DNA of 37,013 nucleotides from an uncultured Myxococcales bacterium (lineage in GTDB: Bacteria; Myxococcota; Myxococcia; Myxococcales; Vulgatibacteraceae), in assembly GCA_964354895.1 (NCBI GenBank), contig CAYHCR010000001.1, positions 1-37,013 on the forward strand, given 5' to 3'. Positions 1 through 13,040 of this stretch are shown here, piece after piece. The notes below the pieces were generated by a model. That model had not been told where the DNA came from. It saw only the letters and a program-made list of their open reading frames with translations, and made no database searches. Every line of letters starts with the position of its first letter. Position 1 is the first letter of the stretch. Position numbers and translations under genes: made by a program.

Positions 1-669
1 AAGGTCCCGGCCGGCTACGAGCTCATCGCCGTGCACGCGGGCAAGACGCAGCCGGTCCACGACAAGATCGTCGCGAAGACCTACGAGCAGTACGCGGTGA
101 AGGTGCAGGGCCAGAGCGACATCCTCATCCACGGCATCCCGTTCATCACGCCCTACAACGTCAACAGCAAGCACCTCAACCCGCTGCTCGTGCAGGTGAT
201 GGGGCTGGGGTATCTGTTCAACCTGTATCGGGGCCGGCCGCTCGTGAAGAAGGGCGGCGTGCTGATCCTGACGCACCCGCTGACGGACGCGTGGGACATG
301 GATCACCACCCGAGTTATCCCGAATTCTTCCACCGGTGCCTCACCGAGACGACCGACTCGCTCGTGCTCGAGAAGAAGTACGAGGAGGAATTCGCGCACA
401 ACCCGGCCTACATCGAGATGTATCGGCGCGGGAACGCCTTCCACGGCGTCCACCCGTTCTACATGTGGTACTGGGGCGAGAACGGTCGCCAGCACGTCGG
501 CAAGGTCATCGTCGTCGGCTCCGACAACGCGCACGTGCCCAAGGTGATGGGCTGGGAGCGCGCGAGCACGCTGGCGGAGGCGATCGCCATGGCCCGCTCC
601 GAGATGGGGCGCACCGCCTCGATCACGATGGTCCACAACGCGCCGGTCGTCCTCGCGGACGTGGAGTGA
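1..669 (+). CDS. LarA-like (lactate racemase / DUF2088 family) protein, C-terminal part; 5' end lies outside the window
   Basis: The frame is open from base 1 ([17 protein letters not shown]...) with G/C-rich third positions. The pattern [10 protein letters not shown]...[21 protein letters not shown] resembles the C-terminal half of LarA-family proteins. TGA stop at 667-669. The family call rests on remembered pattern only. Confidence 0.5.
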
Positions 670-674
670 CACCC

Positions 675-5341
<4,667 letters not shown>

Positions 5342-5345
<4 letters not shown>

Positions 5346-6487
5346 AGAAGGTCCTCGTCACCGGCGGGACGGGCTTCCTCGGCCGCCACCTCGTCGAGCT
5401 GCTGCTCAAGCGCGGCGAGCAGGTCCGCGTGCTGACGCGCGCGGCGGCGGCGCCCGAGCTCGAGGGGCTCGACGTCGAGTCGATCGAGGGCAGCGTCCTC
5501 TCCCGGGCCGTGGTCGATCGGGCCGTAAAGGATTGCGACGTCGTCTACCATTGCGCCGGGCTCGTCTCCCGCGATCCCGACGCGCTGACGCGGATGATGC
5601 GGCTGCACGTCGAGGGCACGCGCAACGTCCTGCAGGCCGCGGAGGGAGCGAAGGTCCGGCGCGTGGTCGTGGTGAGCACGAGCGGCACGATCGCGGTCAG
5701 CCGGGATCCCGAGGAGCTCTCGACCGAGGCGAGCCCCTACCGCTACGAGCTCGTGCGCGGCTGGCCGTATTACCTCTCGAAGATCTACGAGGAGAAGCAG
5801 GCGCTGTTCGAGGCGGCGTCGATGAAGACCGACGTCGTGATCGTCAACCCGTCGCTGCTGCTCGGGCCCGGTGACTCGCGGCTCTCGTCGACCGGCGACG
5901 TGCTCAAGTTCCTCAAACGCGAGATCCCCGCCACCCCGTCGGGCGGCCTGAACTTCGTGGATGCGCGCGACGCCGCGGCCGGATGCATCCTCGCGGCCGA
6001 GAAGGGCAGACGCGGCGAGCGCTATCTTCTGGGCGGGCCGAACTGGGACTTCGCCGAGTTCTTCTCTCGCCTGGCACGTGTCTCGGACGTGCGTGCGCCG
6101 ACCGCGGCCGTGCCCGATCGGGCGGCGCGCTTCTCCGCGCGGCTCGTGGAGCTGCTGCACAAGGCGCGAAAGGCGGACGGCCTGCCGCCGGTCGATCCGG
6201 TCGGCGTGGAGATGAGCCAGCACGTCTGGTACCTCGATGCGTCCAAGGCGCGCGCGGAGCTCGGCTGGGAGCCGCGCGACCCCATGGAGACGCTCGACGA
6301 CACCGTCGCGTGGCTGCGGGAGAAGCACCTCGGCGGCGACCCGCCGACGCCCAAGGCGCCCTCGTTCCTCGAGACGCTCGTGACCACGCTCGGCGAGCCG
6401 GAGAGGCCCGCGAAGGCCACGCCCCGGCCGCTCTCGAAGGCCAAAAAGAAGCCGGCACCGGTCCGCAAGGGCGCCGCACGACGCTGA
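5342..6487 (+). CDS. NAD-dependent epimerase/dehydratase-family SDR (381 aa) with a Lys/Pro-rich C-terminal tail
   Basis: GTG start overlaps the elbD-like stop (GTGA) and AAGGAG lies 6 nt upstream. N-terminal VLVTGGTGFLGRHLV Rossmann motif and a YYLSK (YxxxK) catalytic motif. Confidence 0.8.
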
Positions 6488-7534: not shown

Positions 7535-9499
7535 TCAGTGGAACGTCACGCCCGTGTAGGCGGTGGCGTTGCCGTCGCCGTCGGAGTCGACGCTCATGCC
7601 GACGCCGGCCGGGTAGAGATCGAACTCCTCGTTCATGCTCCCCGGCGTCCAGTAGACGCCCTGGTACGGCACGTCCGGGACGGTCGCGAGGTTGTTCTCG
7701 ATCGCGTACTCGAGCGCCGCGTCCTGGCGCAGCTGGTACGCCTCCGCCGCGATGTCCGCGAAGCCCAGGTTCGACTCCGCCCAGCCGTACCAGTGCGCGT
7801 AGTCCGGGTTCATGTGGTACGCGCCGTGCCACGTCTTCACGAAGTCATACTTGTAGAGCTTGAAGTAGAGCCGCTCCGCCTCCGAGAGGTTGCGGTAGAT
7901 CATCGGGCCGCCGAGCACGAGCGTGCCGGGCGCGGCGTCGGGGTTGTTCGGGCGACCCATCGCCGAGCCCGGCGTCGGCGGCCGCAGCAGGCCGTCGAAG
8001 TAGAGCGCCTTGAGGATGTCTGCGGCCTCGTCGACGACCACGTGGACGTTCTCGTGCATGCCGTCGGCGATCTCCAGCCGCTCCGCCGCGTTGTTGCGGG
8101 CGTGGCAGCCGGTGCAGACATCGAGCATCTCCTCGCGCCGCGCCGTGAGCACGTTTGCGGGATCCACCACCTGCACGATCGTGCCGTCGCGATCGTCGGG
8201 GAAGGCGGAGTCGGCGAGGCCGTCGGCGCCGGCCATGTCGAAGGGTGCGGCGGGATCCCAGGCGGGGTTCTCCTCGATCGCCGTGCCATTCATCACGTAG
8301 GGCAGCTCGCCGCCGCGGCGGAAGCTGCGGTGGGAGGGCATGCCGCCCACCGGTCCATACGCGATGCCGTACGAGAGATCGTGGTCGGTGTAGGGCCGGC
8401 CGTTCACGTCGACGCCCTTCTTCGGCATGTGGCAGTCGCTGCAGGTGGGCGCGCGGCCGCGGCCTTCCGTCTCGTAGACCACGCCGTGCTTGCTGGTCGT
8501 GTAGATCTCGTACTGCGAGTGATCCGGGCCCATGTGGCAGGTGCCGCAGGCGAGCGGCTCCTGCGCCTGCTTTGCGTCGAAGAGGTGGCGGCTGTGGCAG
8601 GAGTCGCACTTGTCCTCGACGTTGTGACAGTTCGAGCAGGTCGCGACGCCGCCCGAATAGATGTCTCCGTTCGCCGTACAGGGCGGCAGGTCGTCGAACC
8701 GGCCGGCCTCGAACATCCGCTGCCAGCCGATGGAGTGGCGGTTCGCCTGGTGGCCGCGGTACTGCGCCGGGTGGCACGTCGCGCAGGTCGCAGGCGACGG
8801 CATCGGGTTGTGGTTCGGCGCGCCGGCGACGTCCGTGCCGTGGCACTCCTGGCACGAGACCTCCTCCGCCATCTTGCTCGCCTTGTAGTCGGCGACGACG
8901 CCGTCGGTCATGAGCGCGTGGCAACCGATGCAGAGATCGGACTCGGCCTTCCACGAGCCGAGCGCGAGCGCGACGTCGACCACGCCGTTGGCGACGACCG
9001 AGACGTGCAGGGTGGCAGGCGCATACATTCCGTTTCCGGCGTTCACCTCGTACGTGCCGATCGGGAGCGTGAAGGAGAACGAGCCGTCGATCGCCGTGAC
9101 CACTTCCGCGGCCTCGGCCGGGAGGATCGAGACCGTCGCGCCGCCGACCGTCGTGCCGCCGGCCGTCTCGGTGACGACGCCGCGCAGGGTGCCGTGCCAG
9201 AGGCCGTCCGCGCCGGGCCCGCCGTCCTGGCCGTCGAGGCCGGGCGCGCCGTCAGCGCCGGGGGCGCCATCGACGCCGGGGGCGCCGTCAACGCCGGGGA
9301 CGCCGTCCTCCCCGTCGACACCATCCACACCATCGACACCATCCGCACCGTTCGCGCCATCCGCGCCGGGGAGACCGACGCCGCCCGCGGGGCCCTGCGA
9401 CCCGTCCGCGCCCGCCGCACCGTCTTCGCCTCCGCACGCGACCAGTACGATCGCCAAGCATCCGCTCAAGATTCCGCCGAGGACTCTGCTCCGCGCCAT
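7535..9499 (-). CDS. Lipoprotein: collagen-like G-X-Y stalk + CarboxypepD_reg-like beta-sandwich + octahaem c-type cytochrome of the hydroxylamine oxidoreductase (HAO)-like type (654 aa)
   Basis: AGGAGG lies 5 nt upstream of the ATG at 9499. Signal peptide with lipobox LVAC (Cys22). 25 uninterrupted G-X-Y triplets. Eight CxxCH motifs (CIGCH, CQECH, CATCH, CSNCH, CDSCH, CGTCH, CSDCH, CTGCH) followed by a long helical C-terminal region. Confidence 0.85.
   Translation of the reverse strand: MARSRVLGGILSGCLAIVLVACGGEDGAAGADGSQGPAGGVGLPGADGANGADGVDGVDGVDGEDGVPGVDGAPGVDGAPGADGAPGLDGQDGGPGADGLWHGTLRGVVTETAGGTTVGGATVSILPAEAAEVVTAIDGSFSFTLPIGTYEVNAGNGMYAPATLHVSVVANGVVDVALALGSWKAESDLCIGCHALMTDGVVADYKASKMAEEVSCQECHGTDVAGAPNHNPMPSPATCATCHPAQYRGHQANRHSIGWQRMFEAGRFDDLPPCTANGDIYSGGVATCSNCHNVEDKCDSCHSRHLFDAKQAQEPLACGTCHMGPDHSQYEIYTTSKHGVVYETEGRGRAPTCSDCHMPKKGVDVNGRPYTDHDLSYGIAYGPVGGMPSHRSFRRGGELPYVMNGTAIEENPAWDPAAPFDMAGADGLADSAFPDDRDGTIVQVVDPANVLTARREEMLDVCTGCHARNNAAERLEIADGMHENVHVVVDEAADILKALYFDGLLRPPTPGSAMGRPNNPDAAPGTLVLGGPMIYRNLSEAERLYFKLYKYDFVKTWHGAYHMNPDYAHWYGWAESNLGFADIAAEAYQLRQDAALEYAIENNLATVPDVPYQGVYWTPGSMNEEFDLYPAGVGMSVDSDGDGNATAYTGVTFH
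9206..9430 (-). repeat. Collagen-like triple-helix repeat coding tract (25 x G-X-Y, Asp-rich)
   Basis: The translation reads GED GAA GAD GSQ GPA GGV GLP GAD GAN GAD GVD GVD GVD GED GVP GVD GAP GVD GAP GAD GAP GLD GQD GGP GAD. The underlying DNA contains 9-nt periodic repeats. Confidence 0.8.
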
Positions 9500-9724: not shown

Positions 9725-10117
9725 GTGGACGGGGCGCGATGCGTGCGCGATGCTGGCGCCGTGCGACGCCTTGCCCTGCCCCTCCTGCTGCTCTCCGCCG
9801 GCTGCTTCCCCGAGCGGCCGCCGATCTCGCTGTTCGGCGAGCTCTGCGGCAACGGCCTCGACGATGACGCCGACGACCTCGTCGACTGCGCAGATCCGGA
9901 CTGCGCCGCAGCGTGTGACGGCGTGACCGGGGCGATCGAGAGCGACTGCAGCGACGGCGCGGACGACGACGACGACGGCCTCGAGGACTGCGAGGACCCC
10001 GACTGCGCCTCGCAGTGCGACGACGTCGAACGCGACTGCGAGGACGGCGTCGACGACGACGGCGATGGCGCGGTCGACTGTGCCGACGACGACTGCAGCG
10101 GCGAGACGGGTTGCTGA
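9725..10117 (+). CDS. Small secreted lipoprotein made of three Asp-rich four-Cys repeats (putative Ca2+-binding module)
   Basis: Lipoprotein signal RRLALPLLLLSAGC. In-frame GTG starts at 9725, 9743 and 9761, with the later ones giving a more typical signal peptide length. Three repeats follow the pattern C-x-[DN]-G-x-D-D-D-x-D-x-x-x-D-C-x-D-x-D-C-x3-C. Confidence 0.6.
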   Translation: MDGARCVRDAGAVRRLALPLLLLSAGCFPERPPISLFGELCGNGLDDDADDLVDCADPDCAAACDGVTGAIESDCSDGADDDDDGLEDCEDPDCASQCDDVERDCEDGVDDDGDGAVDCADDDCSGETGC

Positions 10118-10134: not shown

Positions 10135-11469
10135 CTACGAGCGCGGCCCTCGGTGTGGCGGACGGGGCGTGCCGGGTGGTCGCGGTGGCGACGCGGGCCG
10201 TGGCACGGAGCGGACCTCGACGGCCGGCCGGGACGTCGGCGCCCGCGAGGCATTGGGCGGTGGCGCGGACGGACGAGGCTCCCGTGGCGGACGACCGCCG
10301 CCGTTCTGCCGGCCTGCTCCGTGCCCTGCCGGACGCTGGCCTCCACCACCCTGCGGACGTGCGCCCCGGCGCTCGGCCGGCGGAGCACTCGGCGGACGTG
10401 CGCCCCGACCCCCGGCCGGCGCACCGCCCTGCGGCCGCGCGGCCCGGCTCTCCACCGGCGCACCGCCCTGCGGCCGCGCGCCCGGCTGCGGTCGCCGATC
10501 TCCCTCGTGCGATCGCGGCCCACCCGCGTGCGACCTCGCGCCCGGAGCGGCCGGCGCTGCCCCGGCTCCTGGCCGGTGACCCGCGCCTCCGTGAGGCCTG
10601 TGACCGGAAGGCGCTCGCCCCTCCGCGGCTGGCTGGGACCTGCCTCCCCCGGGATGGGGCCGGCCCCCGCCCGGCGAGGCTCTCGGCGCGGCCTGCGGCG
10701 CCCGCGGCGGCGGTGCGATCGGCGCCGGCCGGCCGCTGGGCACGAAGTCCGCCGTCAGCTCACGCCGAACGTAGGCGCGCCAGATCTCCCCGGTGTCTCC
10801 CGTCCGCGCCTTCACGGCCGGATCGAAGCCACCGAAGAACCCACGCAGGTTCTCCAGATCGCGCTCGAAGTACTGCTCGGACTGGCTGTTCTTGGCCGCC
10901 GCGATCGTCTGCGGGAAGTCGATGATCACCGGCCCCGTCGGCCCGATCAGCACGTTGTACGGCGAGAGATCTCCGTGGATCAGATCCGCCATGAGCATCT
11001 TCACGGCCTCGCCACGCAGAAACTCATACAGCGGCCCGGCGTTCTCCGCCGTGATCTCCGCGTCGATCAGCCGGGGCGCCGGGTGGCCGTCTTCGGCCAG
11101 CACGAGCTCCATCAGGAGCACGCCCTCGAAGAAGAGCACGGGCTTCGGGACACAGACGCCAGCGGCGTGCAGCGTGAAGAGCGCGTCGGCCTCGGCGCTC
11201 TTCCACGCCTCCTCGGCGGAGGCCCGGCCGAACTTGCTGCCCTTGTCCATCGCGCGCTGCGTGCGCGAATTGCGGACCGTACGCCCCTCCTTGTAGCCGG
11301 CGTCGTTCTTGAAGCTGCGGAACTCCCGCTGCTTGTAGATCTTGGCCGCGACGAGCACGCCGCCATGGCGGACGAGCCAGACGTCGGCCTCCTTGCCGCT
11401 CTTGAGCCGGCCTACCACCTCGTCGACGACGCCCTCCTCCTGCAGCATCGCGAGCGGATCGTGCTTCAT
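10135..11469 (-). CDS. RIO-type serine protein kinase with ~200-aa Pro/Gly/Arg-rich C-terminal tail (444 aa)
   Basis: ATG at 11469 with GGGGAG upstream. RIO motifs: SGKEADVW (nucleotide loop), AAKIYK Lys, IHGDLSPYNVL catalytic loop, IIDFPQ metal loop. The tail (about 10135-10745) is low complexity with internal repeats (ARPQGGAP). Confidence 0.75.
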   Translation of the reverse strand: MKHDPLAMLQEEGVVDEVVGRLKSGKEADVWLVRHGGVLVAAKIYKQREFRSFKNDAGYKEGRTVRNSRTQRAMDKGSKFGRASAEEAWKSAEADALFTLHAAGVCVPKPVLFFEGVLLMELVLAEDGHPAPRLIDAEITAENAGPLYEFLRGEAVKMLMADLIHGDLSPYNVLIGPTGPVIIDFPQTIAAAKNSQSEQYFERDLENLRGFFGGFDPAVKARTGDTGEIWRAYVRRELTADFVPSGRPAPIAPPPRAPQAAPRASPGGGRPHPGGGRSQPAAEGRAPSGHRPHGGAGHRPGAGAAPAAPGARSHAGGPRSHEGDRRPQPGARPQGGAPVESRAARPQGGAPAGGRGARPPSAPPAERRGARPQGGGGQRPAGHGAGRQNGGGRPPREPRPSAPPPNASRAPTSRPAVEVRSVPRPASPPRPPGTPRPPHRGPRS

Positions 11470-11491
11470 GTTCTCCCCGCCGGGCAGCGGC

Positions 11492-12334
11492 TCACGCCCC
11501 GCCGGTCGCGACCGCGCGCGACGCATCGCGCGACCAGTCGGAGAAACTTCCCTCATACAGCTTTGCGTCGGTTCGCCCCAGCCGCGCGAGCGCGAGCAGC
11601 GTGTGACACGCCGTCACGCCCGAGCCGCACGAGGCGATCGCCGCGCGGCCTTCGGACAGTCCTGCTGCTGCATAACGTTCCGCGAGCGCCGGCGCCGGCA
11701 GGAACCGCCCGTCCGCCCCGAGGTGCTCCGTCGTCGGCACGTTCACGGCGCCCGGCACGTGGCCCGCCCGCGGATCGACCGGCTCGACCTCGCCGCGGTA
11801 CCGCGCCGCCACGCGCGCGTCCGACAGGAACGCGCCCGTCGCGACCGCCGCCGCGACGCCGGCCGCGTCGATCACGGCGCCGCGATCCAGCCGGAGCGTG
11901 CGATCTGCGCGTCCCACGTCCGCTGGCACGACGCGATCGAGCGCGCCGCCGGCCGCGAGGAAGCTCTGCAGACCGCCATCGAGGACGAAGCAACGCGCGT
12001 GGCCGGCGCGCGTCAGCAGCCACCACAGCCGGGCCGCGATCGCTCCACCCGCGTCGTCATATGCGACGACGTCGCTCTCGATTCCGATCCCGAGCCGCGC
12101 CGCGAGCGCCTGCAGCTGCGCGTCCGTGGGCAGCGGATGGCGCCCCGGACCGCGGGCCTTGTCCCCCGAGAGCTCCGCGTCGAGATCGACGAAGAAGGCG
12201 CCCGGCACGTGGCCCGCCAGGTATTCGTCCCGGCCGATCCGACCCTGGAGGTACCAGCGCACGTCGCACACGACGAGGCCGGGCCGGCCGCGACGAGCGG
12301 CGAGCCAGGCTGAATCGACGAGCGGATCGGTCAC
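11492..12334 (-). CDS. sseA: 3-mercaptopyruvate sulfurtransferase (tandem rhodanese domains)
   Basis: GTG at 12334 with GGAGG 4 nt upstream. The N-terminus LVDSAWLA aligns with the start of E. coli SseA. Active-site loop SCGSGVTA (CG[ST]GVT type). 280 aa, typical for the family. The track's extension to 12520 was rejected. Confidence 0.85.
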   Translation of the reverse strand: MTDPLVDSAWLAARRGRPGLVVCDVRWYLQGRIGRDEYLAGHVPGAFFVDLDAELSGDKARGPGRHPLPTDAQLQALAARLGIGIESDVVAYDDAGGAIAARLWWLLTRAGHARCFVLDGGLQSFLAAGGALDRVVPADVGRADRTLRLDRGAVIDAAGVAAAVATGAFLSDARVAARYRGEVEPVDPRAGHVPGAVNVPTTEHLGADGRFLPAPALAERYAAAGLSEGRAAIASCGSGVTACHTLLALARLGRTDAKLYEGSFSDWSRDASRAVATGGA

Positions 12335-12369
12335 CGGGCCTCCGAGCGGACCAGCCGGCGGGTGCAGCA

Positions 12370-12498
12370 CTACTTGTTGCGAGTCCCGCGGCGCAGGCTC
12401 TTGTTGCGGCGAACGCGCTTGCGCTTGACCTGATCGCGGCGGACTTTGCTGCGGTTCTTCACGGAACGCTTCGTACGGTTGCTGAGCTTCGCGGCCAT
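12370..12498 (-). CDS. Untracked small ORF: 42-aa highly basic (Arg/Lys-rich) protein, ribosomal-protein-like composition
   Basis: ATG at 12498 is preceded by AGGAG with a 6-nt spacer. Translation: MAAKLSNRTKRSVKNRSKVRRDQVKRKRVRRNKSLRRGTRNK, TAG stop at 12370-12372. Codons are mostly G/C-ending (AAG, AAC, CGC). It lies 35 nt upstream of sseA, in a different frame from the spurious N-terminal extension of the 342-aa track ORF. Confidence 0.6.
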   Translation of the reverse strand: MAAKLSNRTKRSVKNRSKVRRDQVKRKRVRRNKSLRRGTRNK

Positions 12499-12638
12499 CT
12501 GCGACTCCTGAGTACGGCACTTCGGTGCCTGAATTCCGGGTCTAGGTAGCCGAGAAGCGGTACGAACGCAACGATGGGTACGATCAGAGAATCCCGATCC
12601 GGGGCGCGCGGCTCTATCCGGACAAAGGAGAAGGACCC

Positions 12639-13040
12639 ATGGACATGACGATCTCGTTCCCCGGCGGCAAGCGGGTCGATGCGGACTACGAGGGCTTCAA
12701 GGTCTCGACCGACCAGTCCAAGGCGGGCGGAGGGGAGGCGAGCGCGCCGGAGCCCTTCTCGCTGTTCCTGGCCTCGATCGGCACCTGCGCCGGCATCTAC
12801 GTGCTGTCGTTCTGCCAGAACCGCGGGATCCCGACCGACGGCATCACGATCGTGCAGTCGCATGAGAAGGATCCGGAGACCAAGAGGCTCACGAAGCTCA
12901 CGATCGACATCCGCGTGCCCGCGAGCTTCCCGGAGAAGTACCTCGGCGCCGTGCGGGCCGCGGCGGACGGCTGCAAGGTCAAGAAGACCATCGCCGCGCC
13001 GCCGGAGTTCGTGATCGAGTCGCACGTCACGGCCGGCTGA
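12639..13040 (+). CDS. OsmC-family peroxiredoxin-like protein (133 aa)
   Basis: AAGGAGAAGG upstream of the ATG. Typical OsmC/Ohr-fold size, with two conserved Cys contexts (SIGTCAGIY and ADGCKVKK). Confidence 0.8.
   Translation: MDMTISFPGGKRVDADYEGFKVSTDQSKAGGGEASAPEPFSLFLASIGTCAGIYVLSFCQNRGIPTDGITIVQSHEKDPETKRLTKLTIDIRVPASFPEKYLGAVRAAADGCKVKKTIAAPPEFVIESHVTAG

Follow-up and report, generated by a model that had tools for sequence, protein, structure and literature searches.

The 37,013-nt stretch of DNA analysed here (the window; contig CAYHCR010000001.1 of assembly GCA_964354895.1, from an uncultured Myxococcales bacterium) carries an ultra-basic open reading frame (ORF) of 42 amino acids (aa), located upstream of a rhodanese gene and a RIO-family kinase gene. 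We found that this frame belongs to a set of conserved small proteins, and the overall best explanation, to which we assign a probability of roughly 45%, is an undescribed Myxococcota family of free-standing small basic proteins of the RNA-binding or ribosome type. The coding sequence (CDS), stop codon included, occupies 12370..12498 on the (-) strand, from an ATG at 12498 to a TAG at 12370, and encodes MAAKLSNRTKRSVKNRSKVRRDQVKRKRVRRNKSLRRGTRNK. A Shine-Dalgarno (SD) sequence, AGGAG, is found at 12505..12509 (-), leaving a 6-nt spacer to the ATG. The frame and its SD had been pointed out in the original prediction, made from the letters of the window alone, and both were borne out by the window sequence. 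Its count of 18 arginine or lysine residues was wrong, as the peptide has 20 basic residues out of 42 (8 Lys and 12 Arg; 48% Arg/Lys) and a computed isoelectric point (pI) of 12.0. The ORF had also been called hidden. It is indeed absent from a view restricted to the longest ORFs, and in the mechanical ORF list a 342-aa frame at 11492-12520 overlaps it in a different frame; however, the stored gene calls of public assemblies already contain it.

The 42-aa frame is almost certainly a real, conserved protein-coding gene, as judged from its pattern of conservation. A word-index search returned one homologue with 84-86% identity and a one-codon in-frame insertion, and an exhaustive HMMER scan of 1.84 billion representative proteins returned 12 cluster representatives. 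A profile search enlarged the family to at least 184 sequence clusters. Among the 120 of these 184 clusters that were listed, the proteins are 36-48 aa long, barring N-terminally over-called or aberrant versions. Nearly all of them are 'hypothetical' or nameless, one is termed a 'predicted transcriptional regulator', and none has a Pfam domain. For pairs with at least 80% amino-acid identity, taken from 34 distinct CDSs, the differences at codon positions 1, 2 and 3 were 0.10, 0.10 and 0.32, respectively, which is a 3.2-fold excess at the third position. The median pairwise ratio of nonsynonymous to synonymous substitution rates (dN/dS) was 0.37; a value below 1 had been named beforehand as a check on the frame. 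The G+C content at the third codon position (GC3) is 0.76-0.98 in the family (a value of 0.86 was also given), compared with about 0.5 at the first and second positions (GC1 and GC2). Length variation at the N-terminus involves whole codons only, and the ATG, the position of the stop codon and the SD are all conserved across relatives.

The family consensus is M-[AP]-(0-6 residues)-R-[TS]-K-[KR]-x-[VI]-K-[NS]-R-[SA]-K-x5-6-KRKRxR[RH]xKx[LV][RK][RK]GxRx[KR]. Residues R8, R16, R26, R30, G38 and R40 are invariant in the curated alignments, and Ser34 is replaced by Gly or Ala in many members. A full-text literature search for family motifs (RTKKSIK, KRKRVRRNK and others) gave no match, and on the basis of these searches the peptide family is previously undescribed.

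An open frame alone is uninformative at this locus: three other frames are also open in 30-34 of the 34 distinct homologous CDSs, because of the base composition (72% GC). This leaves room for the idea that the small frame is a chance ORF in GC-rich DNA or that the region is the true N-terminus of the 342-aa rhodanese ORF, whose frame is open in the window and in a related locus, L001. Both versions are contradicted by the number of clusters and by the codon-position asymmetry described above, and the probability of this explanation is negligible. Rhodanese homology (PF00581 and NF008557) begins only at residue 67-71 of the 342-aa ORF, at an internal GTG (position 12334). Furthermore, another ORF is located between the peptide gene and the rhodanese gene in the related locus L004, and most family members have no rhodanese nearby, which together exclude the N-terminal-extension reading. 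The small frame, and not an extension of the rhodanese, is therefore the conserved coding unit, as had been proposed.

Comparison of about 60 family loci revealed at least seven unrelated gene contexts. The gene of the 37-aa form sits in a fixed slot, flanked on one side by a divergent metallo-beta-lactamase-fold gene and purB, and on the other by a convergent p450 or methyltransferase gene and dut, followed by acs. Genes of the 42-aa form were found directly downstream of rpsA, which encodes six S1 domains, in L086/L121 and L088. In L117 and L120, this form is about 1.7 kb after rpsA, in the order PilZ, peptide, YtxH-like gene and hydrolase gene; L116 and L118 have no rpsA within 5 kb, and their downstream genes are common to both. 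Other forms follow a divergent response regulator gene or a divergent SIS/CBS gene, or lie directly before a CLC channel gene or before a QueD-like gene. In the clade of the window, the order is VWA, OsmC (divergent), peptide and rhodanese in the window, L001 and L158, and VWA, peptide, a 117-aa ORF and rhodanese in L004. The peptide-rhodanese adjacency is kept only within this clade (L001 and L158, and loosely L004). Outside the rpsA context, no subfamily, the 37-aa one and the window clade included, has a translation gene next to the peptide gene. To judge from these neighbourhoods, the peptide gene is behaving as a free-standing unit that has been moved around the chromosome.

Several forms of the family have a promoter-like element of their own. 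In the 37-aa form (L084 and L096-L114), a conserved TGTGCTA(C/G)A(G/C)A element is present in an upstream region of about 20 nt and ends 7 nt before the ATG; in L092, L094 and L108, which have the same form, the element instead precedes an additional, SD-containing leader of about 20 nt. This suggests that the element is an extended -10-like promoter belonging to the gene itself and that the mRNA is mostly leaderless. Farther upstream in this subfamily, the conserved blocks CGCATGTACCAG and GCTTGCAAG were observed. Relatives with the 40-44-aa form have a GGAG-type motif 5-8 nt before the ATG.

These contexts also bear on whether the small frame is a regulatory leader peptide or upstream ORF, the translation of which would control the rhodanese operon while the product itself has no function. 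Its place 35 nt upstream of the rhodanese gene, on the same strand and with no terminator between, would suit such a role, as would the rhodanese adjacency retained in L001, L158 and, loosely, L004. However, a leader peptide should keep a constant downstream gene and let its product vary freely, and here at least seven different downstream or convergent neighbours were found. The amino-acid sequence is conserved across unrelated ones (dut, p450, ABC-2 permease, CLC channel, QueD-like and YtxH), the dN/dS and codon-position data point to purifying selection on the protein, and the 37-aa form is monocistronic with its own promoter-like element. A leader function is thus very improbable.

The carriers of the family were identified by annotation-independent scans covering one genome per GTDB species. 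A total of 33 carrier genomes were found, all with titles of metagenome-assembled genomes (MAGs) labelled Myxococcales, Deltaproteobacteria, Myxococcaceae or 'Proteobacteria bacterium', and none of the 33 is an isolate. These scans found no member in cultured myxobacteria; as they need exact matches to degenerate motifs and could miss diverged copies, this absence is likely but not proven. A first genome scan with the window-type peptide alone had given no confirmed relative. Matches of the degenerate DNA pattern in other phyla were rejected, being out-of-frame KRKRKR runs. A metagenome scan added 15 further loci, including a diverged subfamily, MANLRSNRTKRKVKNRSKVKRTAAKRAGVRSVKRKRRAKRGPR. In this subfamily (L167-L172, from JGI and other metagenome contigs; 42-48 aa), the N-terminal half is kept and the C-terminal half is different. 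The neighbours of its member L171 encode a PolB-like 3'-5' exonuclease, a DUF308 protein and a holin-family protein.

The family has the traits of small ribosomal proteins: 48-60% Lys/Arg, a length of 37-48 residues, a pI of 12, a predicted single helix and a stand-alone gene. The AlphaFold2 model, built from a 52-sequence alignment, has an extended N-terminus and one helix at residues 18-37, with a predicted local distance difference test score (pLDDT) above 90 in the helix and a mean of 79. Arginine codons are mildly biased towards the major codon, with CGC making up 70% compared with 56% in the neighbouring genes. We favour a ribosomal RNA (rRNA)-binding, ribosome-associated role because of the size, charge, single helix, stand-alone gene, positional conservation, arginine codon bias and the rpsA adjacency in one subfamily. 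By analogy, the peptide may tentatively be regarded as RNA-binding and ribosome-associated, with odds somewhat below even. In the mechanism that we propose, the extended N-terminal arm, with its NRTK motif, and the long basic helix (residues 18-37) would bind structured RNA, and the peptide would then act as a lineage-specific ribosomal or ribosome-associated protein, like bS22, eL41, bL37 and Thx. In the genome of the window, the peptide gene would have landed before the rhodanese and RIO kinase genes, with which it is probably co-transcribed. A more specific proposal is that the peptide family arose independently in uncultured Myxococcota as a hitherto unseen, lineage-specific ribosomal protein that fills an rRNA pocket, in functional analogy to bS22, eL41 or bL37, with its ancestral site just after rpsA and, in the window lineage, co-expression with a RIO-type ATPase that possibly acts on the same subunit. 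In this complete form, we consider the proposal doubtful.

Among the known small ribosomal proteins, bS22 (AURKAIP1/COX24/DUF1713; found in Mycobacterium, Cutibacterium, Flavobacterium, Porphyromonas and Borrelia, with the analogues mS38 and eL41) offers the closest parallel in kind. Both it and the peptide are tiny and are predicted or observed to be essentially one basic helix, Lys/Arg makes up over half of the residues in some members, and the genes of both stand apart from the ribosomal operons; bS22 was often left unannotated. The bS22 proteins of Flavobacterium and Borrelia (30-31 aa) were found only through cryo-EM density; the Borrelia protein was unannotated and the Flavobacterium one was annotated only as 'hypothetical' (PMC10618245, PMC7797042). 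Borrelia bS22 is 61% Lys/Arg, and its gene was missed by tblastn with the mycobacterial sequence (PMC10618245, PMC7797042). The versions from different phyla are mutually undetectable by sequence (PMC10618245 supplement; PMC7797042), and the authors of those studies foresaw more such cases (PMC10618245, PMC7797042). However, bS22 has 30-33 aa, compared with 37-48 aa in the peptide family, where an NR[TS]K arm outside the helix at the N-terminus and a GxRx[KR] motif at the C-terminus are also conserved. The site of bS22 is the 16S h44/h45 - 23S H68/H70 pocket of the 70S ribosome. The proteins bL37 of mycobacteria, bTHX of Thermus and bL34 are likewise very small and Arg/Lys-rich and thread into rRNA, and bL37 also has a stand-alone gene among unrelated neighbours (PMC10618245 supplement). 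They differ from the peptide in having other lengths and motifs and no sequence similarity to it, and they have been seen in ribosome structures, whereas the peptide is known from sequence. A literature search for a Myxococcus ribosome structure paper found none with the terms used.

Several observations weigh against a ribosomal role. A profile search of PDB chain sequences, which include bS22 chains, returned no match at E values up to 10. Against the family hidden Markov model (HMM), bS22 from three lineages (Msm, Fjo and Bbu), bL37, Thx, bL34, eL41 and the basic YihI N-terminus did not outscore shuffled versions of themselves. The hhalign probabilities were at most 12% against known small basic proteins and 0.4-1.2% for bS22. 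The adjacency to rpsA occurs in one subfamily only and could stem from a single arrangement in an ancestor. Moreover, no cultured myxobacterium is among the carriers, which is unusual for a core ribosomal component, although the exact-motif scans may miss diverged copies. Finally, the extreme basicity fits binding to DNA or another polyanion equally well.

The comparison set used in the hhalign and HMM-versus-shuffle analyses comprised bS22 (Msm, C. acnes, Fjo and Bbu), bL37, Thx, bL34, bL36, Sra, eL41 and the YihI N-terminus. The Msm bS22 sequence is identical to the PDB chains, and those of Fjo and Bbu bS22 and of bL37 were taken from the supplement of PMC10618245. A comparison with bS22/AURKAIP1-type and other small ribosomal proteins had been recommended in the original prediction, and it gave no similarity by HMMs, hhalign or shuffles. 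By these measures, the family does not belong by sequence to bS22, bL37, Thx, bL34, eL41 or YihI. The peptide may work like bS22, yet it is not classed as bS22. A Foldseek search of the AlphaFold2 model against the PDB gave no match, the model being too small.

Scans of the window peptide and 52-53 members against Pfam and NCBIfam returned only insignificant matches to YihI, the GTPase-activating protein of Der (PF04220 in 4 of 53 members, best E value 1.6; NF003560 in 2 of 52, E value 0.86). The basic N-terminus of YihI has an S-N-(x)-R-S-K ... KRxKKRRG pattern resembling that of the peptide, and YihI is linked to ribosome biogenesis. However, YihI has 169 aa and its functional part is the acidic C-terminal half, which has no counterpart in the peptide. 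A relationship with YihI was rejected, since the result for residues 1-50 of E. coli YihI was equalled by 243 of 1000 shuffles.

The main rival to the ribosome-type reading is that the peptide is a nucleoid or polyanion binder, a protamine- or histone-like protein that coats or condenses DNA or binds polyphosphate, for example in stress or spore formation. The Arg/Lys content of 48%, the pI of 12 and the single basic helix are consistent with such a protein, as are the scattered, mostly non-translational gene contexts and the patchy, lineage-restricted distribution. However, no link to DNA-metabolism genes was seen, and one subfamily lies beside rpsA. The position-by-position constraint, with the six invariant residues given above, fits a specific binding pocket better than generic charge neutralisation. 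We therefore regard the nucleoid role as unlikely, even though it stands ahead of the other rivals.

The original prediction had linked the peptide to the RIO kinase encoded downstream. In archaea and eukaryotes, RIO kinases take part in the maturation of the small ribosomal subunit. The gene at 10135..11469 (-) encodes a RIO1-family kinase/ATPase of 444 aa (PF01163, E value 5e-33, 114.7 bits against a cutoff of 22), and the RIO domain assignment is clear by this score. NF041645, the PA4780 family, scored 286.7 bits, which is under its equivalog cutoff of 350, so that the protein is not certified as a PA4780 equivalog. It is 65-72% identical to proteins named 'RIO1 family regulatory kinase/ATPase', of which Myxococcota have many, for example in Anaeromyxobacter dehalogenans, A. 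sp. Fw109-5 and Vulgatibacter. The homologues are 267 to 454 aa long, with tails of very different length. In the window, the C-terminal tail (10135-10700, -) has about 190 aa, is Pro/Gly/Arg-rich and contains degenerate RPQGGAP-like repeats, with a period of 39 nt and 3.6 copies at 10344-10483.

A partnership, in which the kinase encoded downstream uses the peptide as a substrate, activator or adaptor for ribosome docking within a three-gene module, would agree with the tight spacing of 35 nt and 22 nt with no terminator, with a site resembling those of basophilic kinases (RRNK-S-L-RR) and a Thr in NRTK, both conserved, and with the Arg/Gly/Pro-rich tail of the kinase. However, the conserved synteny that had been suggested as a check was not found, as a RIO gene is near the peptide gene only in the window among the roughly 60 family loci. 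At L004, where the rhodanese is 64% identical, the peptide and rhodanese genes occur without any RIO gene within 4 kb, and none of 80 loci fetched by rhodanese has one within 4 kb. The contigs of L001 and L158 end inside the rhodanese gene, short of any RIO position. Conversely, RIO is widespread in Myxococcota and the peptide is not, and in three RIO loci with 68-72% identity, one of Anaeromyxobacter dehalogenans and two on metagenomic contigs, both the peptide and the rhodanese are missing from the neighbourhood. The replacement of Ser34 by Gly or Ala in many members also argues against the kinase site. A 42-aa gene beside RIO in L157 was considered as a homologue of the peptide and rejected, as its product is unrelated and not basic.

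A RIO partnership is accordingly very improbable, and as a family-wide property it is largely refuted by the genome comparison. Very probably, there is no conserved functional tie between the peptide and the RIO kinase; their adjacency appears to be a local arrangement that says nothing on function. Attractive as it was, the link between a basic peptide and a RIO kinase vanishes on wider genome comparison, and a single-locus operon argument is thus unfit for function assignment here.

The rhodanese gene next to the peptide gene occupies 11492..12334 (-) and encodes a two-domain, 3-mercaptopyruvate-sulfurtransferase (MST)-like protein of 280 aa (PF00581, E value 3.5e-25). The GTG at 12334 is preceded by GGAGG 4 nt upstream, and the start region, GGAG-N-CCCGGTGACC, is conserved in L001 and L158. 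Together with the onset of homology at residue 67-71, this supports the earlier placement of the start at 12334 instead of 12520. The protein contains two PF00581 stretches and a CGSGVTA motif, which we take to be MST-like; NF008557 gave 145 bits, under its cutoff of 250. On these matches, membership in the rhodanese family is certain, and SseA orthology is not established by the NF008557 score.

The earlier measurements of the gaps, 35 nt from the peptide stop to the rhodanese GTG and 22 nt from the rhodanese stop to the kinase ATG at 11469, proved correct. A terminator scan between the peptide, rhodanese and kinase genes found no terminator-like site. Because of the tight spacing and the lack of a terminator, the three genes are likely co-transcribed in the genome of the window. 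In L004, the closest genome relative, the 117-aa ORF between the peptide and rhodanese genes (3651-4004, +) is Pro/Ala-rich and has no family match; it begins immediately after the stop codon of the peptide gene, its own stop codon overlaps the start of the rhodanese gene, and it is absent from the window.

Upstream of the peptide gene, a putative promoter (TTGCGT, 17 nt, TACCTA) may be placed at 12543..12571 (-). TTGCGT is identical in the window, L001 and L158, and a hexamer beginning with TA occurs 17 nt on in all three. A sigma-70 consensus scan at the locus called no promoter, this candidate included. A small stem-loop, GGCAC-CGAA-GUGCC, lies at 12516..12529 (-) in the presumed 5' leader. 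The hairpin had been described with a UUCG loop; the GGCAC/GUGCC stem (12529-12516) is present, but the loop on the mRNA strand is CGAA, with UUCG being what the antisense strand shows. L001 and L158 retain the stem, and the loop differs among the three loci (CGAA, CGCA and CGA). No covariation of the stem was found among them, and the whole leader folded no better than shuffled sequence (z = -0.3). A search of the whole window against Rfam at gathering thresholds returned nothing, and relaxed thresholds around the locus gave a single chance-level match (E value 3.6).

A divergent OsmC-like gene (PF02566) at 12639..13040 (+) shares a 140-nt intergenic region with the peptide gene. The arrangement is identical in L001 and L158 and absent in L004. 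Within this region (12543-12620, -) and its equivalents in L001 and L158, the blocks GGGATTC, CGTTGCGTT and CTCGG-TA are conserved as strongly as the CDS, and they may represent a shared divergent promoter or operator region.

Other genes of the window were also of note. At 9725-10117 (+), a 130-aa ORF that converges on the kinase gene carries a signal of lipoprotein type (LLLLSAGC) and repeated Asp/Cys-rich DCxDPDC motifs, and has no Pfam match. The gene at 7535-9499 (-) encodes a multi-haem cytochrome c (PF13447) with an N-terminal collagen-like Gly-X-Y region (PF01391), an unusual domain pairing. A protein of 1684 aa encoded at 291-5345 (+) combines fatty-acyl reductase, AMP-binding, carrier-protein and acyltransferase domains, and presumably resembles the myxobacterial ether-lipid synthase ElbD; an epimerase/dehydratase-family gene follows at 5342-6487.

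Very small proteins are systematically overlooked or stay labelled 'hypothetical', and this family, with purifying selection, at least 184 clusters and several subfamilies, has no entry in Pfam, NCBIfam, the PDB or the searchable literature. We therefore describe a well-supported new microprotein family in poorly studied organisms, with uncultured carriers and a function proposed by analogy. If the family is ribosomal, it would join bS22, bL37, bL38 and Thx on a short list as a phylum-restricted component. That would be a further demonstration that the smallest components of bacterial ribosomes vary from lineage to lineage, a point that bears on antibiotic binding sites and on the annotation of MAGs.

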